Source of the DNA: a virus
DNA: 38,876 bases
Virus record (IMG/VR): IMGVR_UViG_3300033997_000186
Span: 1-38,876 of that record
Reading direction: 5' to 3' (one strand)
In this document: positions 128 through 36,717 of the stretch, piece by piece
Numbering within the stretch: position 1 is the first letter of the stretch
Layout of the letters: every line of letters starts with the position of its first letter
Notes under the pieces: generated by a model
What the model saw: the letters and a program-made list of their open reading frames with translations, nothing else
Told to the model about the DNA's origin: nothing
Databases searched by the model: none
Program-made: the position numbers and the translations under genes

Positions 128-167
128 TTTTGTCCGAGGAGTGGACCAGGCGCAGCGCAGCACTCAT
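1..167 (-). CDS. 5' part of an early ORF that spans the circular junction (continues from 38749 down to 38452; about 154 aa in total)
   Basis: An in-frame ATG at 165-167 (minus strand) overlaps the TGA of the upstream gene (ATGA coupling). The frame stays open through base 1 into the 38452..38826 ORF once the overlap is collapsed. Confidence 0.6.
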   Translation of the reverse strand, partial: MSAALRLVHSSDKSDPIPKSKEALRDHFYAVPGESKEDRAKRLSAERSKRYRLNQ

Positions 168-763
168 AGGGTTTCACCGTTCAACTTGGCCAGGAGCAAC
201 AGCGGCAGCGGGCGACCGGTGCCAGTCGACAAGGCCACCAGCTCGTTGAACATCGCGGCGATAGCCTCGGCGCCCTCTGTGAGCATTTCGTCGACCTGGT
301 CCGGGTCGTCGGTGTGGTCGTACTTGCCGTCGTGCGCCGGGGCGCTGGCGGCGAGGAAGTCACCAACCGCCTGCGTGACTTCACCCAAGCGAGCACGCGC
401 GGCAGGAACACCTACCAGGCCAACGAGCTCATGGATTCGGACGTCGAAACAGCCAGCCATGGCCAACAGCTCGGAGCGGGCGGCCTTCTGGTAGTCCTCG
501 GGCAGGCAGGAGAGCCAGGCCCATTTCCATTCCAGGGGGAACGGCTGGGTTTCGTGGAAAATGCGGGATACACGCTGCGCCCACGCCTTGCGGGTGCGCT
601 GGTAGGCCTCGATATCGGCTGGCTCCTCCATGGGGTCAATCAACCCCGCGGCCGCCAGTGCTGGCGCCAAGCGCTCGCTTGCGAAGCGCTCTAGTGACCA
701 GTCCGAATGGGCAAACCATCGGCTAGTCTGATCGACAACCACGTCGCGTTCTGTCCGAGTCAT
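164..763 (-). CDS. First gene of the leftward early operon, divergent from cI. Hypothetical; possibly a CII/YdaT-like regulator.
   Basis: ORF track 164..808. I prefer the ATG at 763, which is preceded by GGAAAGG. There is a weak by-eye resemblance to the YdaT / 186 CII pattern (W..R....ET.P.P.E....L.LPED). No Cro-sized ORF is present. Confidence 0.6.
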   Translation of the reverse strand: MTRTERDVVVDQTSRWFAHSDWSLERFASERLAPALAAAGLIDPMEEPADIEAYQRTRKAWAQRVSRIFHETQPFPLEWKWAWLSCLPEDYQKAARSELLAMAGCFDVRIHELVGLVGVPAARARLGEVTQAVGDFLAASAPAHDGKYDHTDDPDQVDEMLTEGAEAIAAMFNELVALSTGTGRPLPLLLLAKLNGETL

Positions 764-811
764 ATAGCACCTTTCCCTGAAAAATGGGTCGCATGTATCC
801 CTGCCCACATT

Positions 812-1840: not shown

Positions 1841-1910
1841 TTTGTACTTTTTTACTTTTGTACTTTTGACCAAAGGGACAAAATGACAAACGTACAAAAG
1901 GACAAGGGCC
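1841..1910. repeat. Array A of 8-bp units (4 x TTTTGTAC-type then 5 x AAAAGGAC-type), overlapping the repA RBS and start codon
   Basis: tttgtac ttttttac ttttgtac ttttgacc aaagggac aaaatgac aaacgtac aaaaggac aagggcc, with a strict 8-bp register. Confidence 0.7.
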
Positions 1911-4900
1911 TGGCCGGCTTTTACGAGGAGCGGTTTAACTCCGACCCGTACAGCCTCATGGCTTACTTCGACGCTCAGATCAGCGCTGCAGCTGCTGACG
2001 TCTCTCTAAAGTGGTCTTCCGTCTCCAGCGCCGTGCGCCTCAACGGCAAGCCGCTGGCCAAGTATTCAAAAACCAAACCTGTTGCCCTCGAAACCCGTTA
2101 CCACGGGAAGGTGATGGTTTGGGGCGAGGTGAAGGAGACCGCCGCCAAGGACGACCTGGCCGAATTTGAATACCCGTTCCTCACCTTCTCGAACAACGTC
2201 ACCGGGTCGAGCACCTGGTCAGGCTTTACTGCGCTCCTCGAACTTTACAAGGATTCCCGCGGTGTCGTCTCTGACGATCGCCACCGCAAATGGCAGGCCG
2301 AGCAGGAAAAGCGGCGCGCCGAGCGTGAAGCCAAGCGCGAGGCCGAAGAAGCGGCCGAGCGCATTCGTGCCGAGCGCGTGGAAAAAGAGCTGGCGGCGTA
2401 CAAGCACGCTTGGCTGACCGGCGAGCGCGGCGAATTCGACTACGAAGGCACCAGCCGCGGCCGCGCCTACATCGGGCGCGGGTTTGTCGAGGTCCTGGGC
2501 GAGGAGGACGGCAGCTCTCCTTACTTGCAGGCGAAACAGATTTCTGACGTAGCGTCACGCTTCAAAATGTTGAAAATGCGTGACCGTCACGGTGAATTCA
2601 CCGCCGTTCCTCTCTACGATGCCTATCGAAATTTCCTCGGCCTGCAGCGCCTCTATGCTGACAAAAAGCTGCAGGGGACCGGCGTCAAGATGGCTGGCGC
2701 CCATTGCATCCTGGGCGACCTGGAAACCGCGCAGGTCCGTTTCGCGGTCGAAGGTTTCGCAACCGGCGCCAGCATCTACCTGGCAGAGCTCGAGGCCGGC
2801 CGTAACGTTGCGGTCGTCGTGACCTTCAACGTCGACAACCTGGTAAAGGTGCTGCATGTCTATGACAAGCTGTATCCGGCCTGGCGCTTCTGGAATGGCG
2901 CCGACAATGACCAGTGGAAGACCTCAGGCAATGCCGGCTTGCTGGCGGCCCTGGAAGTGCATAAAGAGCTGCAGCACCCTGGCATCGTTCCGCAGTTCAA
3001 GCTGACCGAGGAGCAGATCGCCGAGGCCAAGGCCACCGGCAAAGGTCCGACCGACTGGAACGACTTCCACGTCCTCTACGGCCTGAAAGCCACAGCCAAG
3101 GCTCTGCATGCCCGCGCCAGCGTGTTTCACGCCCAAAAAGACTGGTTCAGCTACTGCCTGCAGCGCGTCGAGCGCAGCGGGCGTTTCGCCGAGAAGGCCG
3201 CGAAAATGGCGATCAGCGGCGGCATGAACCTGGTCCCGATCAAGTACAGCACCGACGACGTCATTCGAGCGGTGCTCGAGGTGCTTCCCGCCGTGGCACC
3301 GGTCGAGCTGCGCACGAAGCTGCGTAGCCTGGCCTTGTGGATCGCCAACCAGCGCCGCAACCAGGCCCAGCAGCTGCGCAGCTTCTCGCCTGACGCCTTG
3401 AACAAGCCATATGTGCAGTACATGCCTATCGCTGCAGTGCCGCACCCGGAGCACGGCAGCCCGATGCTTCCTGGCCACCTGGCCGACCTGGTCGAGAGCC
3501 TCGAGGGGACCATCATCGTTCGCGCCCCAATGGGCAGCGGCAAAACCGAGGACCTGATCGCACCCGTACTGCAGGCGTCGACCAAAGGCGCTTATATCGC
3601 CCACCGAATTTCCCTGATGGATGATGCCACCGCCCGCTTGAACCTGGACCGCGAAGGCAACCAGGTCGACGCCAAAGTCGAGCATTACCAGCTGGTCAAC
3701 GCCTGGCAGATGCCCTACGTCTCGCACCTGACCTGCTGCGTCAACAGCCTGACCAACAAGAAATTTTACAACGCCGAGGACCGCAGCTGGTTTACCACTC
3801 TCGAAACCATCTGCATCGACGAAGCGAGCCAGGTTCTGCGCCATGTCACCTCAGGCCCGGTAGAGGGCCGCGTGCGCGTCATGGACGCACTGATCGAGGC
3901 CGTCAGCTCGGCCAAGCGCGTCGTACTGTGCGACGCCGACGCCAATGACTCGGTTATCGAGTTCTGTGCCTTGGCGCGTCCTGGTCAGATCATCACCGTT
4001 ATCGATATCCAGGGGCAGAACAAGCAAATTCGCGTCGACCACGGCGACGACGAAAGCGTCTGGCAGCTGGCGATCGACAAGATCAGCGAAGGCCGTCGGG
4101 TGATGGTTGCCAACGACTCGGCCGAGAGTGCAAAGAAAATGGCGGCCCTCATTGAGCAGATGGTCGAAGCCGGCGAAATGCCCGAGCGGCGAATGCTCCT
4201 GGTACACGCTGACAGCAAGGCCGACCCGGACGTCGAGGCGTTCCTCAGCGACCCGAAAAGCGAGGCCCTCAAGTATGACGTGCTGATCTACTCGCCCGCT
4301 ATTTCGTCGGGCGTCTCGATGAATCAGGCGCATTTCGAGTGCCATTTCGGCCTGTTCAGTGGCAACTCTGTCGGGCCATCCGACGCCCTGCAGATGCTTC
4401 GCCGCGATCGGACGGCAACCCACTACATCATCGGCATCGGCCACAGCTCGAGCCAGCGGGAAACGAACCCCGAGGTTATGTATCGGGGCATGATGGTGCT
4501 CGAGGAGCTGGCCTGCCAGATCGAGAACACCCCCGAGGAATTTCGCGTCGTGCGCAAAAAGACTGCATTCGACAAGGTCTATCTGTCGACTGTGACCTCT
4601 GAGAACCGCGCCCGCGCCAACTTTGCCAACAACCTGCTGCTGATGCTCGAGGCCGAGGGCTACCTAGTCCAGCGGCTCGACCTGCAGGGCGCCGAGGAGG
4701 AGCTCGCCGAGCTGTCCAGGATCAATCGCAAGTTCGCCGCCGAGCTGGTTTTCAGCAAGCGTATGGACTTGATCGAAAGCGTAACCACCCCCGACGAAGC
4801 CGAATTCTTGCGCCTCAACCGCCAGGAAGTGCGCAGCGAGGCCGAGAGTGCCCGCGTCGATCGCTACCACATTGAGCACCAGCTCTGCGTGGACGATATC

Positions 4901-5731
4901 AGCGCCACCGACGTCGCTTTCTACGATGATCGCGGTATCGACAAGGTGCGCGCCCTGGAGCTGCTGCAGTCCACTGCCGAGCAGGCCAAGGGTTACGACC
5001 TCGCCCAACGCAAGGCGCGGTCGGTCCTCACGCAGCATCGATTCAAGGCAGCTCCTCGCGCCATGCTCGAGGAGATTTTCGCCATCCTGACCCTGGACCG
5101 CATGACAGGCCTCGGGGAGTTCAACAGCGACCAGTGCCGCGAGGTCCGGGACCTGATCAAGTCCGACCAGGACACGCTGGATATCTACAATACCCTCAAG
5201 CTCGGCCGCTACATCCCGACGCTGGCCTCTAAGGTCTGCGCCACCACGCTTGTGAAATCGATCCTCGACCGCCTGGGCCTCACCACGAAAAAGCGTAAGA
5301 CGAACGGCCAGAACCTTTACCAGCTCAACATGGATAATTGGCACTTCGTTATGGGCTACTTACAGCGCCGCGCTGCCCGAAACGTCCACTCCCTGGCTGC
5401 CCATGAGCATGAAACCACGCACCAGCCCCTGCTGGCCCCTGAGGAGCCCGCAGATGCACCTGCGTATGTGTTCGCTGAAAGCAGGGACACTTTGCATTGT
5501 GAGGGTGTAAGCACAGATGAAAAGTATCCCTTGGAGGTAATCGAGCGGATTTGTGCTGTTGCTTCGCTTTGCGAGCTCCCCCCCGGTATCTCTGTTGCCC
5601 GCCTGGTGGGGGCGCTCAGCCCGGACCTGGTCAACCAGGTGACGGGGCCGAACGCGGACATGGCGGCCGCCAAGTGGACGTTGGATTATGCGGCGCGATT
5701 ACTTAGCCAGGAGACGCGGTATACTGTATGA
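1883..5731 (+). CDS. repA: RepA-like replication protein (Toprim primase domain plus helicase/NTPase), N15 RepA type
   Basis: 1282 aa. Toprim-like motifs EGFATGAS and ADND. Walker A (APMGSGKTE) and Walker B (ICIDEASQ). Position next to cI and telN matches other telomere phages. Confidence 0.85.
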   Translation: MTNVQKDKGLAGFYEERFNSDPYSLMAYFDAQISAAAADVSLKWSSVSSAVRLNGKPLAKYSKTKPVALETRYHGKVMVWGEVKETAAKDDLAEFEYPFLTFSNNVTGSSTWSGFTALLELYKDSRGVVSDDRHRKWQAEQEKRRAEREAKREAEEAAERIRAERVEKELAAYKHAWLTGERGEFDYEGTSRGRAYIGRGFVEVLGEEDGSSPYLQAKQISDVASRFKMLKMRDRHGEFTAVPLYDAYRNFLGLQRLYADKKLQGTGVKMAGAHCILGDLETAQVRFAVEGFATGASIYLAELEAGRNVAVVVTFNVDNLVKVLHVYDKLYPAWRFWNGADNDQWKTSGNAGLLAALEVHKELQHPGIVPQFKLTEEQIAEAKATGKGPTDWNDFHVLYGLKATAKALHARASVFHAQKDWFSYCLQRVERSGRFAEKAAKMAISGGMNLVPIKYSTDDVIRAVLEVLPAVAPVELRTKLRSLALWIANQRRNQAQQLRSFSPDALNKPYVQYMPIAAVPHPEHGSPMLPGHLADLVESLEGTIIVRAPMGSGKTEDLIAPVLQASTKGAYIAHRISLMDDATARLNLDREGNQVDAKVEHYQLVNAWQMPYVSHLTCCVNSLTNKKFYNAEDRSWFTTLETICIDEASQVLRHVTSGPVEGRVRVMDALIEAVSSAKRVVLCDADANDSVIEFCALARPGQIITVIDIQGQNKQIRVDHGDDESVWQLAIDKISEGRRVMVANDSAESAKKMAALIEQMVEAGEMPERRMLLVHADSKADPDVEAFLSDPKSEALKYDVLIYSPAISSGVSMNQAHFECHFGLFSGNSVGPSDALQMLRRDRTATHYIIGIGHSSSQRETNPEVMYRGMMVLEELACQIENTPEEFRVVRKKTAFDKVYLSTVTSENRARANFANNLLLMLEAEGYLVQRLDLQGAEEELAELSRINRKFAAELVFSKRMDLIESVTTPDEAEFLRLNRQEVRSEAESARVDRYHIEHQLCVDDISATDVAFYDDRGIDKVRALELLQSTAEQAKGYDLAQRKARSVLTQHRFKAAPRAMLEEIFAILTLDRMTGLGEFNSDQCREVRDLIKSDQDTLDIYNTLKLGRYIPTLASKVCATTLVKSILDRLGLTTKKRKTNGQNLYQLNMDNWHFVMGYLQRRAARNVHSLAAHEHETTHQPLLAPEEPADAPAYVFAESRDTLHCEGVSTDEKYPLEVIERICAVASLCELPPGISVARLVGALSPDLVNQVTGPNADMAAAKWTLDYAARLLSQETRYTV

Positions 5732-5774: not shown

Positions 5775-6059
5775 TTGCAGTGCCAGGAAAAAATGGACCG
5801 AGCGTCCGAGCAACTCAGTCGCGCCAAGTCGGCGCTTAGTTTGGCCATGAAGGCCGGTATGGAAGCAACACGAGGTGAACTGCTGGACGTTATCGCCGCG
5901 GTATTCGAGAGGGTGGAGGGAGCAGAGACGGCACTGCGAGCAGGAGAAAACAAGGATGCCCAGCCGGGGCAGTTGACCCCAGCTGGTTCGAGAACTGATG
6001 CGGTGCAAAATCAGTTGCGGGTTGTTCCTTTCGCCGCCAGCGCCAGCAGCGCGTCATAA
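5775..6059 (+). CDS. Small ORF between repA and telN; candidate SOS-controlled antirepressor / induction factor
   Basis: A strong SD (AAGGGGAGGG, 5759-5768) sits 6 nt before a TTG at 5775, with an in-frame ATG at 5793. Predicted to be helical and acidic. The 3' end overlaps the telN 3' end convergently. Confidence 0.5.
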   Translation: MQCQEKMDRASEQLSRAKSALSLAMKAGMEATRGELLDVIAAVFERVEGAETALRAGENKDAQPGQLTPAGSRTDAVQNQLRVVPFAASASSAS

Positions 6060-7645
6060 GCACCCGCTTTGCTGTCACCGTCCGCCCTGGCGATTTCCAC
6101 GCCATTGAGTCGGGCGACAGCGACCCAGCGGCCAGCGTCCTCTGTCACCGAGATACGCGGCTTAGCATTGACCACCTCTGCCGGAACAGCCGGCGCGACC
6201 GCTCGACTTGAGCGGTTCGGGGTCGCCAGGGCTTCACTGGCCATAGCCAGGTAGTCCTTGATCGCTTGCCGGTGGCTGCCTACGTTCACAGAGATTGCTT
6301 TCTGCGAGATAAGGACGTCAGGCGAGGCGGCCACAGCTTGTTTCACCCATGCGTGAATACGCTGCGAAGCAACACCGCCCGCGGCTTGTTCGTCGAGCGC
6401 CTCGAGCGCCTCGAGCCGGCTGCCGTACTTGCTTTCGGGCTCGGCCGGGACGTCGTTGGTGTAAGTGATCTTGAAAGCCTTGTAGCTCTCCTGGGTGTCC
6501 ATGTCTTCATGGCCCAGCATTTCCCGCCAGAACACCGTTTCGTTGACGCTTTTCCAGCGTGCATCCCGCGTGAAATGAGTCTCGAAAACGATCCTCGCCC
6601 ATATCGCCCGGCTGTCCTTGAACACGCGATCGGGGCTGCCCAGCACCCGCTTGGCCACGGTGTTTAGGGTCTTGGCCACACGCCGGTTTACCTCGATGTT
6701 GTCCAGGTGCTGCAGCTCCAGGACTTCGGGCAGCACCCGCAGGCGCTCGAGCGCCTCGAGCACCAGGTCAGCCTTGAGCAGGGTGTAGATGCGGTAGCTC
6801 GAGCCGTAATCGACCCCGTTCCGGCGCTTGGCCTGTCCGCTGAATTCGAGCTCATACTCGCCGGCCTTCTCGAAGCGGCCGAGCTTGAGCACCTCGATTT
6901 CACGGCGGCCCGTGACCATCGCCAGCCCCATCGCCAGCGACGAGAAGCGCTGCACCGGCTCGCCGTTGGCGCCGATTTCAGCGTCGGTCAGCAGGCGCTG
7001 CGCGGTGTCGACATACTGGTAATAGTTGACCTCGACAGTATTGGTCGCGCGCTCCTCAAGGGTGGCCGTGGCCATGGTGGCCAGCTCGGCCTTTGTGACC
7101 GCGGGCAGCACCAGATGCCGCATGATTTCGTGGTCCAGCTTCATCGCCTGGATAGCCTCGAAAGCGTCGTGGTCGCGGTCCTGGCGGATCTGCGCCAGCA
7201 GCTCGCGGTGCGCGAGCCGCAGCTCGGTGATGTTGTCCAGGTCGACCAGGGCGAGCAGCTGCTCGGCGTACCGCGGGTGATGCTTAGCCAGGCGCCTGGC
7301 CGACTCCTCAATGCCATGGTGGCGCCAGTTCTGCGCGGTCACGGCCTTGCGGACGAGGGTCAGGTAGCGGCGATAGCTCGACGGGCGCAGCTTGTCGTCG
7401 TCCTTGCGGCGCTTGTCCTCATACAGGCGCTTTTTCAGGCTCTCAGCGATGCGCGTGATGCGCTTCGTCTTCTCGCTGCGCGACATGTGCGGGTCGCTGT
7501 CCACCAGCCTGACGTCCTGCAGCATTTTGTCGATCATGGGCTGCAGCTCGACCTTTTGCCGAGTAGCCCCGCCGTAGTTGCCAAAGCTGGCGCGCTCCTG
7601 GTCCTGTCCCATCGCCTCATCACCCTTCGTCAGTTCGTCGCTCAT
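6011..7645 (-). CDS. telN: Protelomerase (telomere resolvase)
   Basis: Matches remembered N15 TelN blocks: TGRREIEV / SGRRMIEI, FSGQAKRR / FSGQAKKR, IYTL, VFKDSRAIWARIVFE / VYKDSRAIYARIAYE, RWK.V.E.VF..EMLGHEDMDTQESYKAFK / RWKNVDEDVFFMEILGHDDENTQLHYKQFK. I prefer the ATG at 7645 over the TTG at 7711. Confidence 0.95.
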   Translation of the reverse strand: MSDELTKGDEAMGQDQERASFGNYGGATRQKVELQPMIDKMLQDVRLVDSDPHMSRSEKTKRITRIAESLKKRLYEDKRRKDDDKLRPSSYRRYLTLVRKAVTAQNWRHHGIEESARRLAKHHPRYAEQLLALVDLDNITELRLAHRELLAQIRQDRDHDAFEAIQAMKLDHEIMRHLVLPAVTKAELATMATATLEERATNTVEVNYYQYVDTAQRLLTDAEIGANGEPVQRFSSLAMGLAMVTGRREIEVLKLGRFEKAGEYELEFSGQAKRRNGVDYGSSYRIYTLLKADLVLEALERLRVLPEVLELQHLDNIEVNRRVAKTLNTVAKRVLGSPDRVFKDSRAIWARIVFETHFTRDARWKSVNETVFWREMLGHEDMDTQESYKAFKITYTNDVPAEPESKYGSRLEALEALDEQAAGGVASQRIHAWVKQAVAASPDVLISQKAISVNVGSHRQAIKDYLAMASEALATPNRSSRAVAPAVPAEVVNAKPRISVTEDAGRWVAVARLNGVEIARADGDSKAGAYDALLALAAKGTTRN

Positions 7646-7647
7646 AC

Positions 7648-7982
7648 ATACACCCTTTGCCCTAGTGAAAGATAGCAGGCTATTGCCATACACCCATAGC
7701 CCGCGTGTCAATAAGCATCATTGTACACCCATTGCCAGTGCATGTATACACCCATTACCCAATCTCACCTAATATACACCCATAGCCCAATATACATGGC
7801 TTAGTGCGCTCTATATTGGGCAAAGGGTGTATACACCGATCCCCCATTCTATACGTATAGAATGGGGGATCGGTGTATACACCCTTTGCCCTATGACTAT
7901 TTAGGGGTATGGGTGTATACAGGTACGGGCTATGGGTGCATGGGGATAGAGGGCTATGGGTGTACATATACACCCATAGCCC
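7648..7982. repeat. Array of about 11 copies of a 16-mer family, TAYACACCC(A/T)T(A/T)GCCC, arranged symmetrically around the tel palindrome
   Basis: Forward copies start near 7648, 7687, 7722, 7744, 7772 and 7877. Inverted copies start near 7818, 7905, 7928 and 7951, with one more forward copy at 7968. A 32-bp near-palindrome lies at 7951-7982. Confidence 0.8.
7818..7891. other. Telomere resolution site (telRL-like): 74-bp perfect palindrome centred between 7854 and 7855
   Basis: GGGCAAAGGGTGTATACACCGATCCCCCATTCTATACGTATAGAATGGGGGATCGGTGTATACACCCTTTGCCC, with every pair checked by hand. The core CCATTCTATACGTATAGAATGG resembles N15 telO, CCATTATACGCGCGTATAATGG. Confidence 0.9.
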
Positions 7983-8232
7983 TATGTCATAATGCCATTT
8001 GCCAAGGGTGATAGCTTGCGGGGGACTAATAGCGGAATGAGCCTGGTTGATGGCCAACAGGCCATAAAGGAGCGTCAAGCGCCTATACACCCCAAGGACC
8101 AGGCAGGGTCCTTTCTACAGGGCTATAGCGCCTAACCCGCATGCAGCAAGGGCTGCAGCGCTAAGGGGTAAGGACAGCGCTCGGCGCGGGGGCAGAGTGA
8201 CGGATAATGTGGCGCTTCGCGCCGCTGTTTGT

Positions 8233-8278
8233 TTGTACCTTTGACCTTTAGGCCTATTGTACAAAGGTACATTTGTAC
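8233..8278. promoter_or_regulatory. Array B of 7-8-bp TTTGTACC-type units upstream of parA (candidate par operator/centromere)
   Basis: ttgtacc tttgacc tttaggcc tattgtac aaaggtac atttgtac, lying 38 bp upstream of the parA ATG. Confidence 0.65.
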
Positions 8279-8315
8279 GTATATTGAGGGCCTCACCAAC
8301 TGCGAGGCCTTCGAC

Positions 8316-8963
8316 ATGGCAGCAAGAGTCTGGACAATACAGAACCAAAAGGGCGGCACGACAAAGACCACGACCGCAACCAATATCGCGTGCTGCCTGG
8401 CTGACAAGCACGGCAAAAGCGTGCTCCTGGTCGACCTGGACGGCCGCCAAGGCTCGGCAACCGACTGGGCAACCTCCCGCGCTGACAGCGCTACGCTGAT
8501 CCCCTGCGTCATCATGCGCGAAACCCTAAAGCGCGACCTGCCGCGTATCTCGAGCGGTTACGACTACGTGATCATCGACGGGATACCGCAAATCAGCACC
8601 CTTACCTCTGACGCCGTTAAGGCCTCTGACCTGGTCGTCATCCCCGTGCAGCCAAGCCAGTACGACATATGGGCGACCGCCGACATGGTGCAGCTCGTAA
8701 AGGACCGCCAGGAGATTACCGGGGGCACGCCAAAGGCCGTGCTGATGATCGCCAGGGCCATCGCCGGCACCCTCCTCGAGCGCGACGCGCAGCAGGCGCT
8801 GCTCAACTACGAAATGCCGATCACCGCCACCCAAACGCACCAGCGCGTCGCCTACGGCAAGGGCATCGCCCAGGGCAATAGCGTTATGGACCTACCACCG
8901 TCCGACGACGCCCGCCTCGAGATTGAAGCGCTGACCGCCGAGCTGCTGGAGCTTGATAAATGA
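8316..8963 (+). CDS. parA: ParA partition ATPase (small type Ib, no N-terminal HTH)
   Basis: Deviant Walker A QNQKGGTTKTT, then VLLVDLD and YVIIDG. GAGG lies 8 nt upstream of the ATG at 8316. Confidence 0.9.
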   Translation: MAARVWTIQNQKGGTTKTTTATNIACCLADKHGKSVLLVDLDGRQGSATDWATSRADSATLIPCVIMRETLKRDLPRISSGYDYVIIDGIPQISTLTSDAVKASDLVVIPVQPSQYDIWATADMVQLVKDRQEITGGTPKAVLMIARAIAGTLLERDAQQALLNYEMPITATQTHQRVAYGKGIAQGNSVMDLPPSDDARLEIEALTAELLELDK

Positions 8964-9271
8964 CCACCTCGAAAATCACCACCGCCCGCCCAAGCCGCGC
9001 CGTCGCGTCTGGCATTGAGCCGCATGTCGAGAAGGCCCGCCGCGCCGTTGTGAGCGACGCTGTCGAGGAGAAGCAGCTAAAAGCGATCGTGCCGACGAAG
9101 TACCACAAGGGCACCACCGACATTAAAAACATGTCGCTCGACAACGTGCCTGTTAAGTACCTGATCATCGAGGCGCTCGACGACCTTTTCAGGAAGTACG
9201 AGCAAGGGGAGGGGCATTACAGCATCGAGGACCAGGAGGAGCTGGCGCGTCGATTGAAGTCATTGAAGTGA
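8960..9271 (+). CDS. Small centromere-binding protein, ParG/omega-like ribbon-helix-helix (predicted)
   Basis: 103 aa, ATGA-coupled to parA. Disordered basic N-terminus, then a beta-helix-helix pattern (KQLKAIVPTKYHKG...VKYLIIEALDDLFRKY). Confidence 0.65.
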   Translation: MTTSKITTARPSRAVASGIEPHVEKARRAVVSDAVEEKQLKAIVPTKYHKGTTDIKNMSLDNVPVKYLIIEALDDLFRKYEQGEGHYSIEDQEELARRLKSLK

Positions 9272-9337
9272 TAGAGACGCCCGGCAGCGGCTGCAACCGC
9301 TAACCGGGCAAGGACCGATAGACCTAGGGGGTTAACC

Positions 9338-9493
9338 ATGTCCAACCGCGACTATACCACAGTGCGCAGCATGAGCCTGCGCGATGCAGTAGACCCAGCC
9401 AATCGCGCCCTGGTGCGCGCCTACTTCGCGCAAGAGTGCTGCCTGATCGCCTGGCACGGCTTCCTGCGCTCGATCGGGGAGGCTGCCCAGTGA
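9338..9493 (+). CDS. Small ORF (51 aa), first gene of the accessory operon
   Basis: Not in the ORF track (under 60 aa). ATG preceded by AGGGGG. High GC3. Its stop overlaps the next start (GTGA). Confidence 0.45.
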   Translation: MSNRDYTTVRSMSLRDAVDPANRALVRAYFAQECCLIAWHGFLRSIGEAAQ

Positions 9494-9642
9494 AGCGCAC
9501 CGACGACCCGACCGGCCTGCAGTTCCTGTTTACCGGCATCGTGGCCATTGCTCTCGGCCTGCAGCTGGCGTGGGTATTCCTGCACCGCCTCTACACCCAG
9601 CGTTTCGACCACCAGGAAACCAACAAGGACGACCAACCATGA
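9490..9642 (+). CDS. Small single-pass membrane peptide (50 aa, GTG start)
   Basis: In frame with track ORF 9436..9642. GGGGAGG lies 8 nt upstream. Hydrophobic core LQFLFTGIVAIALGLQLAWVFL. ATGA-coupled to the next gene. Confidence 0.45.
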   Translation: MKRTDDPTGLQFLFTGIVAIALGLQLAWVFLHRLYTQRFDHQETNKDDQP

Positions 9643-9983
9643 AATTCCCTGCAGCTGCACTCCTGGTCGCGCTGGCGATCGCCGCCACCGCGCCGGCACA
9701 CGCCCGCGACTGCGACATAGACCGCGACGGGCGCAAAGACGCTACGTGCGGCGGACCTGACCGCGACCTCGACAACGACGGGCGCACCGACGCCAGGTTC
9801 GGCGGCCCCGACCGTGATATCGACAACGACGGCCGCACCGACGCCAAGTTCGGCGGGCCTGACCGGGACCGCGACAACGACGGGCGAACCGACGCGACGT
9901 TCGGCGGCCCCGATCGCGACCTCGACAACGACGGGCGCACCGACCGCCGATTCGGCGGCCCAGACGACCGCTGGGGGCGCTGA
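9639..9983 (+). CDS. Secreted protein with 17-aa DxDxDG calcium-binding-type (thrombospondin type 3-like) tandem repeats
   Basis: Signal peptide MKFPAAALLVALAIAATAPAHA, then 4.5 copies of GGPDRDxDNDGRTDAxF. Confidence 0.75.
   Translation: MKFPAAALLVALAIAATAPAHARDCDIDRDGRKDATCGGPDRDLDNDGRTDARFGGPDRDIDNDGRTDAKFGGPDRDRDNDGRTDATFGGPDRDLDNDGRTDRRFGGPDDRWGR
9750..9953. repeat. Four tandem 51-bp repeats (coding repeats of the 9639..9983 gene)
   Basis: GGCGG(A/C/G)CC recurs at 9750, 9801, 9852, 9903 and 9954, a period of exactly 51 bp. Confidence 0.9.
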
Positions 9984-9984
9984 C

Positions 9985-10197
9985 ATGGCCATTACCATCA
10001 AGGTGCGCATGAGCTGCAGCGCCTACCAGGCGCGAGCCATGCGCCTTGGCGTGACTGCCAGCAGCGCCGAGAGTGCCAAGGCCGCAGCCATGGCCGTATG
10101 CCGCAAGCTGGGCGCCGATCCCGAGCTGCTCGAGCAGATTCCCGGCGACCCAATGACGACCACCTACACCCATCCGCACCAGGAGCAACCGGCATGA
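9985..10197 (+). CDS. Hypothetical protein (70 aa)
   Basis: ATG 2 nt after the upstream stop. ATGA-coupled to the following gene. High GC3. Confidence 0.55.
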   Translation: MAITIKVRMSCSAYQARAMRLGVTASSAESAKAAAMAVCRKLGADPELLEQIPGDPMTTTYTHPHQEQPA

Positions 10198-10628
10198 CCA
10201 CCACCGACCCCCGCGACGCTCTCGCGCCCTGCCCCTGGTGCGGCGAGCAAGCAACGCGCGTAATGCTGACCCACCCCGAGCCAGAGTGCGGCGAAATCCT
10301 GCGCCAGGAGGATTACGGCGACGGCGTCGACGGTGACGCGCAAGCCTTCTGCCACATGTGCGGCGCACGGCCGGCAGCCGTCGGCGTGACGCTCTACACC
10401 GCCGAGGACTACGACGAAGCGATCGCGCTGGCTGTCAGCTCCTGGAACGACCGCAAGGGCGCCGAGGTGGCCGACGCGGCGATCAGGGCGGACGCCAGGC
10501 GCTATCGCCGCCTCCTGCACGAAGGGCTGCGCTTCATGGCTGGCGGCAAGCTGCACCAGACCAAGGCCGAAACCGACGCAGCGATCGACGCCCTAGAGCC
10601 CGCCCCTGCATCAGCGTCGCGCATGTAG
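10194..10628 (+). CDS. Lar-family (restriction alleviation-like) zinc-ribbon protein with a C-terminal extension
   Basis: PCPWCG ... CHMCGA ... EAIALAVSSWNDR matches the Lar-family pattern (CPFCG...CG...A..AWN.R). AGGAG lies upstream of the ATG at 10194. Confidence 0.6.
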   Translation: MTTTDPRDALAPCPWCGEQATRVMLTHPEPECGEILRQEDYGDGVDGDAQAFCHMCGARPAAVGVTLYTAEDYDEAIALAVSSWNDRKGAEVADAAIRADARRYRRLLHEGLRFMAGGKLHQTKAETDAAIDALEPAPASASRM

Positions 10629-10639
10629 CGCGCCCCACA

Positions 10640-10665
10640 AGCCCGCCCACTCGGCGGGCTTTTTG
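10640..10665 (+). terminator. Rho-independent terminator ending the 9338-10628 operon
   Basis: An 8-bp stem (AGCCCGCC / GGCGGGCT) with loop CACTC, followed by TTTTTG. Confidence 0.75.
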
Positions 10666-10704
10666 TTACCCTGCGCGCCATCACGCAATGGAGATACGCG
10701 CAGC

Positions 10705-11058
10705 ATGAAAGCAAAGCCCCTTCTGATCGGCCTCGGCGTCGCCGTCCTGGTCATCCTCGGATTCAACGACCTGGCCAACAAGGACGCCAACGCGCTCGAG
10801 CGCGTGAGCGACCGCGTCGGCCTGCAGGTCAATTGCAGCGTGGACAAGTTCGACGGCCAGCGCTGGGGCGTGTGCCACTACCAGAACGGCGCGCCGGCAA
10901 GCGCCTGGCTCGACCGGGACGGCACCTGGATTGCCGGCAACGGCGGCGCGATCAAGGTCGTCGACCGCCTGGCCAACGTCAGCGATCTGCAGGGGCTACC
11001 GCCTGTAATGCGCGACTACGTGAAGCCGCCCGCCATGCCCGCCGCACTGTTCGAGTAG
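10705..11058 (+). CDS. Secreted or membrane-anchored hypothetical protein (117 aa)
   Basis: N-terminal MKAKPLLIGLGVAVLVILGF. It has its own SD (GGAGA) and lies between two terminators. Confidence 0.6.
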   Translation: MKAKPLLIGLGVAVLVILGFNDLANKDANALERVSDRVGLQVNCSVDKFDGQRWGVCHYQNGAPASAWLDRDGTWIAGNGGAIKVVDRLANVSDLQGLPPVMRDYVKPPAMPAALFE

Positions 11059-11073
11059 CGAGCACCAGGAACG

Positions 11074-11112
11074 AAAAAAGCCCCCACCGCCGCGAGGCAG
11101 TGGGGGCTTTTT
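11074..11112. terminator. Bidirectional terminator between the convergent plus and minus gene blocks
   Basis: AAAAAAGCCCCCAC...GTGGGGGCTTTTT: an 8-bp GC stem with an A-tract and a T-tract on either side. Confidence 0.8.
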
Positions 11113-12122
11113 CATTCCAGCGGCACAGATGCCTCAATCGTGCAGCGGTAGCTCTGTCCTCGGCTGCCACGCTCTGTAACCTTGTCGATCGACCACTGCT
11201 GGCGCATGAAGCTGGGCCAGCTGTCATCGAGCACGACCAGGCCCTCGGCGCCGTAGCCAGGATTACCAGGGCAATCAATCTGCACCTTGTACGCGCTGCG
11301 CTTGATCTTGCGCAGTTCACCCTCGCCGGCATCCTTTGCCTCGGCTTCGTTCTGGTAGCGCTGGCGCACCTTTTTGAAAGGCTTCTCGCCAGTTTCGACC
11401 ACCTTTTCCTTGCCGGTCGCCGCGTCCCACCAGGTCGTGCGCGTGCCCTTGAACTTGGCGCGGCTGTCGTCGTCCAGGGACGCCTGGATAAACGCTGAAT
11501 CCCCCGGCCTGTTGTCGTTCGTGAGCGAGATAGTCATCACCGGCAGGGTTTTGCCCGACAGCGACTTGAGCTGGCCGCGGCGAGCCATGACATACAGCTC
11601 GTTTACCGGCTTCGTGACGGCGTCGTACTGGCGCGCGATCCTGGTCAAGAACCCCATGTCAGTCTCGTTCGACTGGTCGACGTGCTCGATCTTGATCGCG
11701 TCCAGCTCGGGCGCGATCCGCGGCGAGAAGCCGTGACGGCCAGCCAGCTCGCGGAACACCGCGCCCAAGGTCGTCGGGCCATAGCTGGCCGAGCGACGCG
11801 CCTTGAATTCCGTCTCGTCGGCGACCTTGAACGGCGCGGCCGTGGCCACAATCTGCAGCTGCGACGGGAACAGTTGCGGTGTTACGCGCGTAACGACGAA
11901 CTGGCCAGCGTCGACCAGGCCGGATTCCTTGTAGCCGCGCCGAAAGCCGATTTTCTCGTCGACGCTTGGCAGTCCCTCGATGCCCTCAGTGCTCACCGTC
12001 AACCTGAGGGTGTCCGACTGGACCCCCGCCGCGTCGACGTACTCCCAGTCGATTAACCGGGAGTTGATCAGCCCAGCATTTGCGCCCGTCACCTCGACGG
12101 CCGGCGTGTACCCCAACGACAT
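11112..12122 (-). CDS. P2 gpD-like tail protein (late control D family)
   Basis: 336 aa. Last gene of the tail block, following gpU/gpX-like genes. The sequence pattern is typical of gpD. Confidence 0.75.
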   Translation of the reverse strand: MSLGYTPAVEVTGANAGLINSRLIDWEYVDAAGVQSDTLRLTVSTEGIEGLPSVDEKIGFRRGYKESGLVDAGQFVVTRVTPQLFPSQLQIVATAAPFKVADETEFKARRSASYGPTTLGAVFRELAGRHGFSPRIAPELDAIKIEHVDQSNETDMGFLTRIARQYDAVTKPVNELYVMARRGQLKSLSGKTLPVMTISLTNDNRPGDSAFIQASLDDDSRAKFKGTRTTWWDAATGKEKVVETGEKPFKKVRQRYQNEAEAKDAGEGELRKIKRSAYKVQIDCPGNPGYGAEGLVVLDDSWPSFMRQQWSIDKVTERGSRGQSYRCTIEASVPLE

Positions 12123-22956: not shown

Positions 22957-23951
22957 AAGGTCCTGACCTCAATCTCGATCGCTTCACAGTACGGCGCCTG
23001 GTGCGCGGCCGCCTCGATCGGGGCCAGCGGCTCGAGCCGCTGCAGGCGCTCGGCGCCGGCCGTGATCAGGCCCGCATCGATCCAGGCTGGATCGACATAA
23101 CCCTCGAGCCGGTGCCGCGCCGTTGCGTAGGCCTGCATGGCTGCGACCGCCGCCGTTTCAGTGAGCCCCGAGTCAGGGCCGGGATTGATCCAGGCGACTG
23201 CGCGAATCCGGTAGCGCAGAATTTGCGCCGGCTGCACCGTGACCTGGTCGGTTTCGGGCCGAACGTCATCGCGGGCGAAATGCTTCCGGGTAGCCTCGAG
23301 CAGCTCGGCGCTCGGGGTGCCGTCGCCGTCGCGGCCGAGCACCGTAACCGTAACCTTGCCCGGCTCAGTAAACCGGCCGTTGGCGTCCTTGACCTGCGCC
23401 GCGAAAGCGTCCTCGGTGAAGGTGTACGTCACGACCACCTGCCCAGCGTTGGGCGCCTCTACCGTCACGTTGGCACGCTCGCCAAGGGTCAGGGCCTCGC
23501 GCCGGTACTGCAGGCGCGAGCCCGCGGCCGGTGCATGCGGCGCCAGGTAGTAGCGCAGCCGCAGGTCGTCGTCGGACTCCTCCACGGCCGGGACAGGCGG
23601 GAAGGCGTTCGGGTCGCCCTCGGAAATGACCCGCCGCTCGAGCCCCATGTCGGCCGCGCGGGCGTTGAGGTTCGACCCCTCGGCCCACCAGGCCAGCATT
23701 TGCTTGATGCGGGCATTCCATTTGCGTTCGTGGGCCTGGATTCGCAGGGTAAACGCCTGCATGGCCATGACCAGGAGCTCGCCGTCGCTCTCCATCGTCT
23801 CGGCCAGGCGCGCGGCCTTGGCCGGGTCCCTGGCCGAAACGAAGGCGAGCACCTCGGCCTTGAACTCCTCGAGCAGCGGCTCGAACTCTTCGACCTTGAC
23901 GATTTCAGGCTCGGCCAGCTGGTTGAGGCCGGGGATCAGCATCGTACTCAA
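22953..23951 (-). CDS. Baseplate protein, P2 gpJ-like
   Basis: 332 aa, between the gpW-like and gpI-like genes. Confidence 0.75.
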   Translation of the reverse strand: MSTMLIPGLNQLAEPEIVKVEEFEPLLEEFKAEVLAFVSARDPAKAARLAETMESDGELLVMAMQAFTLRIQAHERKWNARIKQMLAWWAEGSNLNARAADMGLERRVISEGDPNAFPPVPAVEESDDDLRLRYYLAPHAPAAGSRLQYRREALTLGERANVTVEAPNAGQVVVTYTFTEDAFAAQVKDANGRFTEPGKVTVTVLGRDGDGTPSAELLEATRKHFARDDVRPETDQVTVQPAQILRYRIRAVAWINPGPDSGLTETAAVAAMQAYATARHRLEGYVDPAWIDAGLITAGAERLQRLEPLAPIEAAAHQAPYCEAIEIEVRTL

Positions 23952-30554: not shown

Positions 30555-32699
30555 CTACCTGGTCGGCCTCTTGATGATGTTGAAGCGAGAACGGCCTTTA
30601 GCCGGGGCTGCGTCAGCCCTTCGCTGGCGAGCAGCTGGCTTTTCGGCCTCAGTTGGTGGCGGCGGCGCCGGCACAGGGGCCGGGACTACCGGGGCGGGCG
30701 TGTCGTCATCGTCCAGCGGCTCGGCGCCTTCCTGGATCGGCCCATTTTTGACCGCTTCGGCCAGCTGGGCCTTGGTCAGGGCGCCGACCTTGCGGCGCTG
30801 CAGCTTGTCGCGCAGCGCCATGATGTATTGCATCGCCTCGCAGTCGAGGTAGTGGTTTTCGCCGACCTGGTGAAACTTCCCCTCGGCCTCGCCCCACTCC
30901 TCACCCACGATTTCCTTGCAGTACAGGTCCGTCACCTGCTGGTGCAGCAACCACCAGCCCCCGCGGTCATCCGGGCGCCCAAACCGGCTATGCACCCAGC
31001 GTTTCGCGAAAGGCGAGTCGAAGGCCCAGCGAGCATCGCCGCGCTTGCGCGTCTTACCCTTGCGGTCGACCTCTACCATTTCCTTGCGAAATGGCTTGTC
31101 GAGGCGCTCGCGGCCGCGCAGGGCGATGGCCCTGGCCTTGTGGTCGTTGATGAACTTGTAGACCTGGTCGTCGCGATAACCGATATCGATGCCGGTTACG
31201 TTGATCGGGTGGCCACCGTACTCGGTGTCGATCAAGTCGCTCAGCTGGTCCCATACGGCGTCCTGGTCGGTGTCGCCCCACAGGTCGCCATGCTCCAGGA
31301 GCATCGAGCCCATGCCGGCGTACCAGGCGCGCACCACGTACACCAGGCGGCGCTTTTGCACGTCGACCGTGCAGTAAATTTTCAGCGGCTCCAGGAGCAG
31401 CTGGCCGGCAGCGTAGCCCCAGCACATAGAGCGGACCTGTTCCCAGGTCGGGACGTCACCGGCCTGCGCGTAGCACTCACCGAAACCGGTGTTGTACACG
31501 GCCAGCAGGTCAGCCGGGTCGCCGCTTTGCTGGGCGGACAACAGGTCCTTGGCCAGCGCGCCATAGCTCTTTTTCGAGGAAAACGAGCACAGGCCGGATA
31601 CCGCGTAGGTGAAGTGGGTCGAGCCCGCCGTTTCAGCCTCGCCACTGACCTCGCCGTCGCGGCTGATCGACTGGCCAGGCGCGACAGGCCGGCCCCGCTC
31701 ATTCATCCAGGAGCGATATTTGTTCTCGATCTGGCAGCCGTTGCTCGGGCAGGTCAACCGGGCGTGCCGCTGGGCTTCGTCTGGCGTGCATTCCTTCTCG
31801 CTGCCTTTGCCAGGCCACCAGAGCAGCCCTGACCAGGGAATGAAATACTCGCCGCACTCGGGGCACGGCACCGCCCATTCATGGCGGGTGCCCGACTGCC
31901 AGAGCTTCCAGATGGCCGAGCCCAGCGCCTTAACCTGCGCCACTTCCCAGTGCCAGAGACCCGAAACAGGATGCTTTCGCTTGGCCACTCGCCCATGCGT
32001 CGGCGTCGCGGTGTAGAGGATTTTCGACCCGTCGTAGGCATCGCCTCGACGCTCGACAATGACCATCGTCGAGCCTTCGCCCGTGTTGACGATCCGGTCA
32101 ACCTCGTCGACCAGGATCAGGCCGACCGAGTCTGCAGACAAACCCGACGGCGAGCCGGCCCACACGAACCGCAGTTTCGTGCCGGCAATCCATTTGACGA
32201 ACGTCGAGGACTTGCGAACGTTGAGCTTGGCGCTCAGCGACTCGCATTCGCTGATCATGTCGTCGAATTTCGGGACCACGGCGTCTTTCAGCAGCGGCGC
32301 CGTTGGCGCGACGTACATGATCGGCGTCGGGTCTTCGTCCAGCCGGTGCCCGATGATGTTCTCGAACGTGACCGATTTGCCCATTTGCGTCGCGGTGATC
32401 ACCGTCTCGCGGTCATAGCACGGCTGCGCCGCGGCCCAGGCTGCAGGCCGCATGTATGGATTGACGTCAGGGTCGAAGTTACCAGGGCGCGGCGAGCTGG
32501 GCGGCATGACCCGCTTGTCGCGCGCCCATTCGTCACTCGTCCTCGCTGGCGGCGCCTTGACCAGCTTCGCCGCTGCCAAGATCGACTTGATCAAGGCTCG
32601 AAGTGAGCTCATGTGCTCGACGCTCGAGGCGGTCAGCTGTAGCTGCTCGGACTGTCCGCGTTTCTTTAAATAATCGATCTCGGATAAGAGCAGGGTCAT
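30555..32699 (-). CDS. Terminase large subunit (lambda gpA family)
   Basis: About 714 aa with gpA-like blocks including the zinc-ribbon-like CPECGE. The start is uncertain (32699 or 32612). Confidence 0.85.
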   Translation of the reverse strand: MTLLLSEIDYLKKRGQSEQLQLTASSVEHMSSLRALIKSILAAAKLVKAPPARTSDEWARDKRVMPPSSPRPGNFDPDVNPYMRPAAWAAAQPCYDRETVITATQMGKSVTFENIIGHRLDEDPTPIMYVAPTAPLLKDAVVPKFDDMISECESLSAKLNVRKSSTFVKWIAGTKLRFVWAGSPSGLSADSVGLILVDEVDRIVNTGEGSTMVIVERRGDAYDGSKILYTATPTHGRVAKRKHPVSGLWHWEVAQVKALGSAIWKLWQSGTRHEWAVPCPECGEYFIPWSGLLWWPGKGSEKECTPDEAQRHARLTCPSNGCQIENKYRSWMNERGRPVAPGQSISRDGEVSGEAETAGSTHFTYAVSGLCSFSSKKSYGALAKDLLSAQQSGDPADLLAVYNTGFGECYAQAGDVPTWEQVRSMCWGYAAGQLLLEPLKIYCTVDVQKRRLVYVVRAWYAGMGSMLLEHGDLWGDTDQDAVWDQLSDLIDTEYGGHPINVTGIDIGYRDDQVYKFINDHKARAIALRGRERLDKPFRKEMVEVDRKGKTRKRGDARWAFDSPFAKRWVHSRFGRPDDRGGWWLLHQQVTDLYCKEIVGEEWGEAEGKFHQVGENHYLDCEAMQYIMALRDKLQRRKVGALTKAQLAEAVKNGPIQEGAEPLDDDDTPAPVVPAPVPAPPPPTEAEKPAARQRRADAAPAKGRSRFNIIKRPTR

Positions 32700-33105
32700 C
32701 GATAATCGCCAAGTCGGCGGCGCAGCGGCTCGGCAGTGCGTCGAGCTGGGTCGCATAGATCGCCGCGATTGAGGTAATCAGGGCGACGAACACCTCATTC
32801 GGAATGAGGCGCCCGCGCACCTGGTCGATTTCGAGCTGCAGCTTTTCCCGCCGCGCCCGCTTGAGCAGCCGATCCTCTGCCGAGGCCGAGCTAAGGCCCT
32901 CCTCGTCGTCGCCTTCGTCGCCGATTTCTCGGCGCACTTCGCGCAGGATCAGCCACTCAATCGCCGCCTGGCTGTCGATCTGGACAGCCACACCGCGGCC
33001 ACCGCCGCCCTGCGTGGGTAGCCCCTCCTCGATCAACTTGGAAACCCAGCGCTCGGACTTGCCCAGCAAGTCGGCCAGGTCTTTTTTACTGATGGTTCTG
33101 CCCAT
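32533..33105 (-). CDS. Terminase small subunit (Nu1-like, winged-HTH N-terminus)
   Basis: MGRTISKKDLADLLGKSERWVSKLIEEGLP resembles the Nu1 N-terminus. It overlaps the 5' end of terL. Confidence 0.75.
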   Translation of the reverse strand: MGRTISKKDLADLLGKSERWVSKLIEEGLPTQGGGGRGVAVQIDSQAAIEWLILREVRREIGDEGDDEEGLSSASAEDRLLKRARREKLQLEIDQVRGRLIPNEVFVALITSIAAIYATQLDALPSRCAADLAIIDDPALIRDRLFKETRTVRAATADRLERRAHELTSSLDQVDLGSGEAGQGAASEDE

Positions 33106-33109
33106 GGGA

Positions 33110-33183
33110 GAAAGGACCAAATGGGAAAAGTGGCAAAAGGACAAAGGTACAAAGGTCCTTTGTTACCTTTGTCCTTTTGGCAC
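33110..33183. repeat. Array C of 8-bp units (6 x AAAGGAC/AAAGGTAC-type then 3 x TTTGTCC-type), forming a ~50-bp imperfect palindrome 5 nt upstream of terS
   Basis: gaaaggac caaatggg aaaagtgg caaaaggac aaaggtac aaaggtcc tttgttacc tttgtcc ttttggcac. Confidence 0.7.
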
Positions 33184-35410: not shown

Positions 35411-35422
35411 GGGCCTTTTTAA

Positions 35423-35471
35423 CTTTTTGCCTTTTGTACCCTTTGCCTTTTTGCCCTTTGTACCTTTGTAC
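35423..35471. repeat. Array D of six direct 7-9-bp TTTGTACC / TTTGCC units upstream of the candidate late promoter
   Basis: ctttttgcc ttttgtacc ctttgcc tttttgcc ctttgtacc tttgtac. Confidence 0.7.
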
Positions 35472-36564: not shown

Positions 36565-36717
36565 CTATTTCTTGCCAACCATCAGCACCGCCAGCAGCAA
36601 AGCGACGATCACCAGGTCAGCACACATCGAGAGGAGTCGACTTGCAGAATCGACCAGGACAACGGCGCCGGCCAGCCCGAAGGCCAGCCAGTTCCGAGCA
36701 GAGGAGAGCCAGGTCAA
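36565..36717 (-). CDS. Possible 50-aa membrane peptide (TTG start overlapping the TerB-like stop)
   Basis: Hand translation gives LTWLSSARNWLAFGLAGAVVLVDSASRLLSMCADLVIVALLLAVLMVGKK. Not in the ORF track. Confidence 0.3.
   Translation of the reverse strand: MTWLSSARNWLAFGLAGAVVLVDSASRLLSMCADLVIVALLLAVLMVGKK

Follow-up and report, generated by a model that had tools for sequence, protein, structure and literature searches.

The centromere parH and the operator OF of plasmid TP228 are built from 4-bp boxes separated by 4-bp AT spacers; boxes occur in both orientations, each takes one ParG dimer, and their orientation is flexible (PMC3130281). In pSM19035, the sites of the omega protein are arrays of heptads at the copy-control (copS), delta and omega promoters (PMC5016525). 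Arrays of similar design lie at four dispersed places in the virus record IMGVR_UViG_3300033997_000186 (IMG/VR; positions 1 to 38,876), called here the window, that is, the whole stretch of 38,876 nucleotides (nt) that was analysed. Judged from its sequence, the window is a complete telomere phage-plasmid of Pseudomonas, of the phiHAP-1/VP882 (Hapunavirus-like) type. One array covers the start of repA, one the promoter of the partition gene parA, one precedes terS and one precedes a late promoter. These arrays are very probably the sites of a phage-encoded, co-evolving factor. Comparison of sequences suggests that this factor is the 103-amino-acid (aa) protein encoded directly after parA, acting as a type Ib centromere-binding regulator, to which a probability of about 0.58 is given. 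The literature on hapunavirus-type phages, as far as it is searchable, contains no description of segregation, of partition sites or of the 103-aa protein.

The four arrays are:
1841-1903, plus strand: array A, four forward units followed by four reverse units (convergent)
8229-8279, plus strand: array B, about six units in mixed orientation; candidate operator and centromere
33110-33183, no strand assigned: array C, six reverse units followed by three forward units (divergent), between cos and terS
35416-35471, plus strand: array D, seven direct units

The unit consists of a T3-4 spacer and a 4-bp box, mostly GTAC. Array A comprises TTTGTACT TTTTTACT TTTGTACT TTTGACC and then the reverse units AAAGGGAC AAAATGAC AAACGTAC AAAAGGAC, and array B reads TTTG TTTGTACC TTTGACC TTTAGGCC TATTGTAC AAAGGTAC ATTTGTAC. 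A preceding inspection of the letters alone (the sequence-only reading) had described arrays of an 8-bp unit at these four loci only, with an orientation that differs from site to site and an architecture of the kind bound by ribbon-helix-helix (RHH) centromere proteins. The repeated unit is real, but its length varies from 7 to 9 bp. All four arrays lie where they had been placed, orientation does differ between the sites, as listed, and the combination of a 4-bp box with an AT spacer, in direct and inverted order, is that of TP228 parH/OF. The count against shuffled controls that had been proposed as a check gave 11 copies of TTTGTAC on both strands, against 1.14 +/- 1.12 expected; none of 100 dinucleotide shuffles reached 11, and 10 of the 11 copies fall inside the arrays. 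An unbiased scan for the density of A3/T3 tracts likewise ranks the four arrays at the top, with 6-8 tracts per 56 bp, and its two remaining peaks (15880 and 18442) contain no units. Since units differ in length and sequence, most arrays escaped autocorrelation (lags 6-12) and strict chaining of units at a spacing of 7-9 bp; they were scored with a position weight matrix and with lineage-specific k-mer clusters. The matrix finds clusters at the four arrays, a result that is circular in that the matrix was trained on them, and otherwise only a weak three-unit cluster at 1650-1674. This cluster overlaps the tail of a terminator (1707-1673) and is a possible fifth mini-site.

Among hapunavirus-like phages, whether of Pseudomonas, Halomonas or Vibrio or from IMG/VR lineages, the arrays keep their four positions. 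Searching IMG/VR for RepA with an alignment yielded 68 loci, a locus search with a single RepA protein none. An array marks the start of repA in each hapunavirus-like lineage, with lineage-specific boxes in at least 58 RepA-related loci, and the layout upstream of parA, again with lineage-specific units, is found in at least 20 relatives. In all 16 hapunavirus-like loci with enough flank to be assessed, the 103-aa protein is encoded and arrays are present. The distant RepA relative L076, which has a 386-aa type Ia ParA, contains neither a 103-aa homologue nor unit arrays. A crude count of tracts near repA was unfit for AT-rich genomes, and the distant loci were judged by visual inspection. The boxes at the repA start are:
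GTAC: Pseudomonas group
GTGC: L006, L058
GTTC/GTGC/GCGY: L023-L034, L038, L054
GCGT/ACGC: L036, L037, L039-L046
ATGTAC/TTATAC: VP882 type
GTAC/GTGC: phiHAP-1 type
ATGTGC: L053, L061, L063

In each genome, the same lineage-specific box is used by the arrays ahead of parA and of terS and by those in the interval from Q to the holin gene. The clearest case is L006, with TTTTGTGC at repA and parA alike; Q-to-holin arrays with the lineage-specific unit are found in L037, L039, L046, L050 and L063. Among 11 representative genomes, the overlap of box profiles is 0.297 across sites within a genome versus 0.084 between genomes, and none of 10,000 label permutations reached the observed concordance of the repA, parA and terS boxes (p ~1e-4). 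The sites are thus more alike within a genome than the same site is across lineages, which points to one trans-acting, co-evolving reader, while the concerted change of the box speaks against a purely structural role of the DNA and against a host protein with a generic preference for AT. The sequence-only reading had proposed one partition protein for all arrays; the conserved positions and the co-evolution of the unit are what a single phage-encoded binder predicts, but the identity of the binder and its functional effects stay conjectural. Some lineages carry five or six arrays (L046 1664-5974; L037 5723-6034), with two or three of them between Q and the holin gene, so the number of sites is not fixed at four.

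The same data bear on two explanations that need no partition protein. In the first, a host nucleoid-associated protein (MvaT/MvaU in Pseudomonas, H-NS in Vibrio and Halomonas, or IHF/Fis) would silence or shape key promoters and cosB. Few places in this genome of 63% GC are as rich in AT and in tracts as the arrays, which also occur in related phages of several gammaproteobacterial genera, and array C is located where lambda cosB has its IHF site. However, a preference for AT leaves unexplained both the uniform 4-bp, GC-containing box and its concerted switch, the GTAC, GTGC and GCGT boxes occurring in lineages of similar GC (0.62-0.65). No unit is known to fit the consensus of IHF, Fis or DnaA, and a host protein appears improbable. 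In the second, there is no dedicated protein at all, and phased T-tracts would serve as UP-element-like or curved DNA that boosts promoters and bends cosB. Boxes that are uniform within genomes and co-vary across sites are difficult to reconcile with this model, which puts no constraint on box identity, and a period of 8 bp does not keep in phase with the turns of the helix. In its favour, arrays A and D begin 3-6 bp ahead of a -35 element, array D resembles an UP element in its proximal part (AAAAAGTTAAAAAGG), and array C is flanked by inverted R sites, a place at which lambda requires bent DNA. Yet array A reaches into the reading frame of repA, and array B lies across its own promoter, positions that speak for occlusion, not activation, and TP228 parH, with the same layout, is not intrinsically bent (PMC3130281). 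An explanation by DNA structure is therefore regarded as very improbable.

The partition genes are:
8316-8963, plus strand: ParA
8960-9271, plus strand: open reading frame of the 103-aa protein

ParA is a Walker ATPase of 215 aa, a type Ib size, without an N-terminal DNA-binding domain. It matches Pfam AAA_31/CbiA and PHROG 164, exceeds the cutoff of the NCBIfam model NF041546 (ParA_partition; 216.7 bits versus 180), and has as its best solved relative ParF of TP228 (4dzz, E 2.5e-20, full length). The start codon of the 103-aa gene overlaps the parA stop codon (ATGA), an arrangement kept in all relatives, and the gene is translationally coupled to this ParF-like parA. The locus has the organization of a type Ib system: a small ParA, a small partner gene downstream in the same operon, and repeats upstream of the par operon. 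It is not of type Ia, which has a large ParA with a helix-turn-helix (HTH), an HTH ParB/SopB and inverted-repeat centromeres, because ParA is a 215-aa ParF-like protein, the partner has 103 aa and no ParB domain was found in it, and the sites are unit arrays. Homologues of the 103-aa protein are encoded by VHML, VP882, phiHAP-1, VP585, MAR and five Pseudomonas plasmids. The family forms 24 clusters at 50% identity among 1.84 billion proteins, and in every context retrieved a member follows a small ParA in a telomere-phage genome. The protein belongs to PHROG 15913 (function unknown) and has no Pfam or NCBIfam model.

Alignment of the family reveals a variable N-terminal tail, a conserved R/K-P at positions 10-11 (R10-P11 in the window), the motif K-x-hydrophobic-x-hydrophobic-x-x-P followed by Y-H-x-x-L-x-x-I-K, and a strongly conserved helix V-P-V-K-x-L-I-I-E-A-L-D-D-L-F-x-K-Y. 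At the level of the alignment, this is the strand-helix-helix pattern of RHH proteins. An AlphaFold2 monomer, predicted from a 29-sequence alignment that includes distant members, has a predicted local distance difference test (pLDDT) score above 90 at residues 40-100 and of ~50 in the tail; residues 32-45 are extended, with a candidate beta-strand at ~38-45, and helices span 46-58, 65-81 and 92-102. The model obtained with 18 close homologues was poor (pLDDT 58). When the family profile is compared with PDB sequences, all matches are sub-threshold; the top one is a CopG-family regulator (7by2, E 0.21), which aligns in register over the strand and both helices. The pattern and the model suggest that the 103-aa protein is probably an RHH protein. 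It is, by its sequence, not a member of the ParG family, and none of 31 family members matches the ParG model PF09274, even with E values up to 1 admitted. The residues of the candidate strand can be set beside the box of the same lineage: QLKAIVP goes with GTAC, RFTVHAP and RLPVYAR with GTGC, KIPLLAP with GTTC, and RVYFTGP with GCGT. A strand that changes with the class of box is compatible with the 103-aa protein as the reader.

Several observations weigh against the RHH fold or against the 103-aa protein as reader of the arrays. The Pfam matches of the family to Antitox_RHH (23 of 31 members) and RHH_3 (3 of 31), which in their consistency speak for the fold, are all below the gathering threshold. 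Foldseek searches of PDB and BFVD with the monomer, a model that its disordered tail makes uninformative for this purpose, returned no significant RHH match (best Reg576, E 9.1). The program hhalign, with the family against 20 ParG sequences, put the RHH in register, a point in favour of the fold, but with a probability of only 11.6%. The RHH-like pattern that the sequence-only reading had noticed stands as a sequence pattern, with weak profile matches and an extended-helix-helix model, but finds no significant counterpart in these two comparisons. Strand class and box class are confounded with phylogeny, and VP882 and phiHAP-1 combine GTAC-type boxes with strands unlike the Pseudomonas strand. 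A Mantel-type test of box-profile similarity against the identity of ten phage proteins gave r from -0.08 to 0.33 and did not discriminate between them (Spearman r 0.19 for the 103-aa protein versus 0.26 for Q and 0.33 for TerL); it thus provides evidence neither for nor against any binder. In the contexts retrieved, the 103-aa family never occurs outside this phage group, so that the protein and the arrays are inseparable from other shared genes. Binding by the 103-aa protein, centromere activity and the effects on repA, late genes and packaging are, finally, what we infer from these comparisons.

Some of these points can be turned in favour of a different co-evolving DNA-binder of the phage, namely the 214-aa cII-like protein, the N-terminal domain of RepA acting on iteron-like repeats, or Q, with the 103-aa protein binding elsewhere, for example to the motif AGAAAGGAC. 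Concerted evolution points to a co-evolving factor but does not single one out, and the Mantel-type test shows no preference for the 103-aa protein. For the cII-like protein, neither Pfam nor PDB offers a relative from which a DNA target could be read. Lambda CII acts at several dispersed promoters through direct repeats, and arrays A and D abut -35 elements, a typical activator position. Contiguous 8-bp units in either orientation are, however, typical of RHH proteins (ParG, MetJ), whereas the repeats of HTH activators and of iteron-binding Rep proteins normally measure 10-22 bp. Moreover, a type Ib ParA lacks a DNA-specific domain, so that its partner must bind near the par promoter, and among the repeats it is those of the arrays that overlap this promoter.

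The motif AGAAAGGAC (9 bp, also found as GTCCTTTCT) is the alternative target at the par locus. It is invariant from Vibrio to Pseudomonas phages (L001-L006, L037, L039, L058 and others). Between the tel palindrome and parA (8093-8176), the window has an exact copy at 8108-8116 (minus strand) and a partial one, TAAGGAC, at 8169-8176; in every lineage this region holds 1-3 copies, 50-75 bp apart. The presence of these motifs 50-250 bp upstream of parA in every lineage favours a different binder for the arrays, and on sequence grounds the motifs could be the true centromere, which also counts against the arrays in this role. In the window alone, AGAAAGGAC is not enriched (7 matches versus 5.7 expected), and its significance lies in the conservation of its position across lineages. 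But the motif does not vary, unlike the candidate strand with which the 103-aa protein would read DNA. The motif also matches the R sites of lambda, and TerS resembles Nu1. Units that differ between lineages suit a reader that differs too, and the invariant AGAAAGGAC suits TerS, given its match to the lambda R sites and the equally conserved winged HTH (wHTH) of TerS; this wHTH is the likely reader of the motif, as far as sequences can tell. Assignment of the arrays to a phage protein other than the 103-aa protein is thus considered unlikely.

If the 103-aa protein is the array factor, its RHH dimers would coat the arrays in a ParG-like manner, with one dimer per 8-bp unit (4-bp GYRC box plus T3-4 spacer). 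The effects would depend on the signals next to each array, which, together with the genes they serve, are:
1707-1673, minus strand: strong terminator, which would close a ~100-nt RNA between cI and repA
1837-1810, minus strand: leftward promoter-like site, TTGACG-16-TAAACT
1883-5731, plus strand: RepA
32533-33105, minus strand: TerS, Nu1 family (PF07471)
33108-33119, minus strand: R1-like motif GGTCCTTTCTCC, immediately before the terS ATG
33154-33163, no strand assigned: inverted R2-like motif, ~44 bp upstream of the terS ATG
33277-33267, minus strand: R3-like motif GTCCTTACTTC, ~157 bp upstream of the terS ATG, kept in all lineages
33326-33302, minus strand: candidate cos end GGGCGGTAACGGCGCGGGCCTCGCG, ~215 bp upstream of terS, resembling the lambda left end
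34425-34976, minus strand: lysozyme
35356-35335, minus strand: tR'-like intrinsic terminator, after the late promoter
35410-35381, minus strand: late promoter, TTGCAA (35410-35405), 18-bp spacer, TAATTT (35386-35381)
37163-38116, minus strand: Q

The parA promoter lies inside array B, with its -35 TTGTAC/TGTACA at 8257-8263 (TTGTAC, 8257-8262), a 17-bp spacer and its -10 TATATT at 8280-8285. The array, whose short repeats run in both directions ahead of the par operon, overlaps the -35 and the spacer, so that its assignment to the parA promoter by the sequence-only reading holds. Here the bound complex would repress the parA promoter and form the partition complex, with ParA recruited and stimulated via the basic, disordered N-terminal tail of the 103-aa protein. 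Array A spans the repA Shine-Dalgarno sequence and the first seven codons (ATG at 1883). It thus covers the ribosome-binding site and start codon, as had been described, but it also abuts the conserved leftward promoter: its left edge is 3 bp from the -35, and the promoter blocks GTCAA and CAGTTTAG are kept beside array A in all lineages. Bound protein would occlude the ribosome-binding region of repA and abut the divergent small-RNA promoter, and the occupancy of array A would link the level of the partition protein to replication control. The putative ~100-nt RNA may be a regulator of replication or immunity.

Array D had been placed upstream of a candidate late promoter, and its edge is in fact 6 bp upstream of the -35 on the minus strand. 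The promoter and its terminator have the layout of lambda PR'/tR', standing after Q and before the holin-like, lysozyme and Rz-like genes, and phiHAP-1 and VP882 have the same arrangement. The bound complex would occupy about -41 to -96 of this Q-dependent promoter. A TerB-domain accessory gene (36714-37151, minus strand) lies between Q and the late promoter.

Array C stops 5 nt short of the terS ATG (33105, minus strand), as the sequence-only reading stated, but it is not simply a terS control element, its units filling the DNA between and beside the R-like sites with which they are interleaved. The GTCCTTTCT/AGAAAGGAC motifs by terS resemble two lambda R sites, which we take to be R1 (CGTTTCCTTTCT) and R2 (AGAAAGGAAACG). 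The candidate cos end resembles both GGGCGGCGACCTCGCGGG, the left end of lambda, and GGCGGCAAACCCGCGGGC, with which the VP882 record opens, and the N-terminal wHTH of TerS is conserved across lineages and 41% identical to gpNu1. With a Nu1-family TerS and R-like repeats between the candidate cos and the terS start, the region is, by its sequence, a cosB of the lambda type. The bound complex would fill the DNA between the terminase R sites, where IHF has its place in lambda. The terS gene has no Shine-Dalgarno sequence, and in most lineages the R1-like GGTCCTTTCTCC(C) stands directly 5' of the ATG, so that terminase binding and initiation of terS translation may overlap; in phiHAP-1-type loci and L058, ~10 extra nt separate the two.

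Jointly, the arrays would provide several dispersed centromere-like sites that tie maintenance of the linear plasmid to lytic functions. As a network, they would be centromeres, parA operator, repA brake, upstream element of the late promoter and architectural element of cosB. That one RHH partition protein family, confined to hapunavirus-type telomere phages, directly couples segregation, copy control, late transcription and packaging, independently of the type Ia Sop system of N15, is a tentative proposal and should be regarded as doubtful.

Further landmarks of the window are:
164-808, minus strand: cII-like protein, 214 aa
888-1577, plus strand: cI (S24 repressor)
7815-7894, no strand assigned: tel resolution palindrome of 80 bp, centre at 7854/7855
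6011-7711, minus strand: protelomerase

Plasmids of P. monteilii and P. aeruginosa share ~95% identity with positions 1 to ~7.9 kb, and related plasmid records terminate or mirror exactly at the tel palindrome. Since tel is the end of the linear prophage, array B lies ~375 bp from one end; measured from the tel end on the parA side, the arrays are at 0.4, 25.3, 27.6 and 32.9 kb of a 38.9-kb molecule. At least eight copies of TATACACCC(A/T)T(A/T)GCCC, in both orientations, surround the tel palindrome (7644-7995), other copies reading CCCATAGCCC; these are presumably accessory protelomerase sites. A variant of the array unit had been seen in the tel arms as well, but this CCTTTGCC belongs to the TATACACCC(A/T)T(A/T)GCCC family and was rejected as a unit. 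The divergent region of 80 bp between cI and the cII-like gene holds two direct copies of TATATATCGAG (812-860), likely the cI/cro operators. Accordingly, cI was rejected as the array binder, its operators being TATATATCGAG, unlike the 8-bp unit. Downstream of the par operon lies a Lar-like restriction-alleviation accessory gene (10098-10628, plus strand). A 36-bp bidirectional intrinsic terminator (AAAAAAGCCCCCACCGCCGCGAGGCAGTGGGGGCTTTTT) at 11076-11111 separates convergent genes; it is 100% identical to phiHAP-1 23278-23313, 91% identical in P. aeruginosa plasmids, and the sole megablast match between phiHAP-1 and a 5-kb query (window 7000-12000).

The logic proposed here is known from ParG, omega, KorB and N15 SopB. 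The new elements are the 103-aa family, a unit of 8 bp with a GYRC box, a conserved layout of four sites whose specificity co-evolves, and arrays placed inside cosB and against PR'. VP882, a model of phage quorum sensing, is one of the hapunavirus-type linear phage-plasmids, which also comprise elements in clinical Pseudomonas aeruginosa. If the proposal is true, the centromere-binding protein and its sites are identified for the whole group, and the series GTAC, GTGC, GTTC and GCGT, with its differing beta-strands, offers a specificity series for studying how RHH proteins read DNA. It would also be the second independent case, after N15, of partition sites scattered over the controls of replication, late genes and packaging, and the position of array C inside cosB suggests cross-talk between partition protein and terminase.

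Compared with the known systems, the terS-proximal region follows lambda cosB (R3-I1-R2-R1, with gpNu1 and IHF) in its Nu1-family TerS and in R-like motifs at the same positions between the cos end and terS. The DNA between these motifs differs, being made of the 8-bp units of the parA, repA and late promoter regions and not of an IHF site, and R-like motifs near tel and parA have no lambda counterpart. The closest likeness of the par locus is to TP228: a ParF-type small ParA, a small partner gene directly downstream, a partner of 103 aa that, like ParG, has a disordered basic N-terminal tail and a C-terminal domain of RHH pattern, and a box-spacer array that, like parH/OF, lies upstream of the par promoter and overlaps it. 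The box differs (GYRC, not ACTC), and the arrays occupy four dispersed sites of a linear telomere phage, not the par locus only. Contiguous short repeats of varying number and orientation at several promoters are also the mark of pSM19035 omega, each of whose sites has centromere activity, and by analogy the window may follow the same delta/omega logic. No sequence relationship to omega was detected, its units measure 7 bp against 8 in the window, and in the window parA and the 103-aa gene form one operon. Furthermore, the omega sites are all promoters for plasmid maintenance, whereas two of the four arrays here are at lytic functions, the late promoter and cosB.

RK2/RP4 offers a partition protein with a second role in global regulation: its KorB, a ParB, has 12 dispersed OB operators and controls replication, maintenance and other operons. 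KorB is, however, a large HTH protein of the ParB family, and its sites are single 13-bp palindromes, not arrays of short units. N15 is a linear telomere phage-plasmid with four scattered centromere sites of the sopC type, some of them in the late region, and its Sop system reportedly facilitates late gene expression. The window resembles it as a linear telomere phage-plasmid with four scattered sites, for which a centromere-like role is proposed. In type the two differ: N15 has a type Ia system with a large HTH ParA, an HTH ParB and single inverted-repeat sites, and L076, the only N15-like relative sampled, with its 386-aa ParA, has no unit arrays. The systems of N15 and of the window being of different type, a shared function would be a case of convergence.

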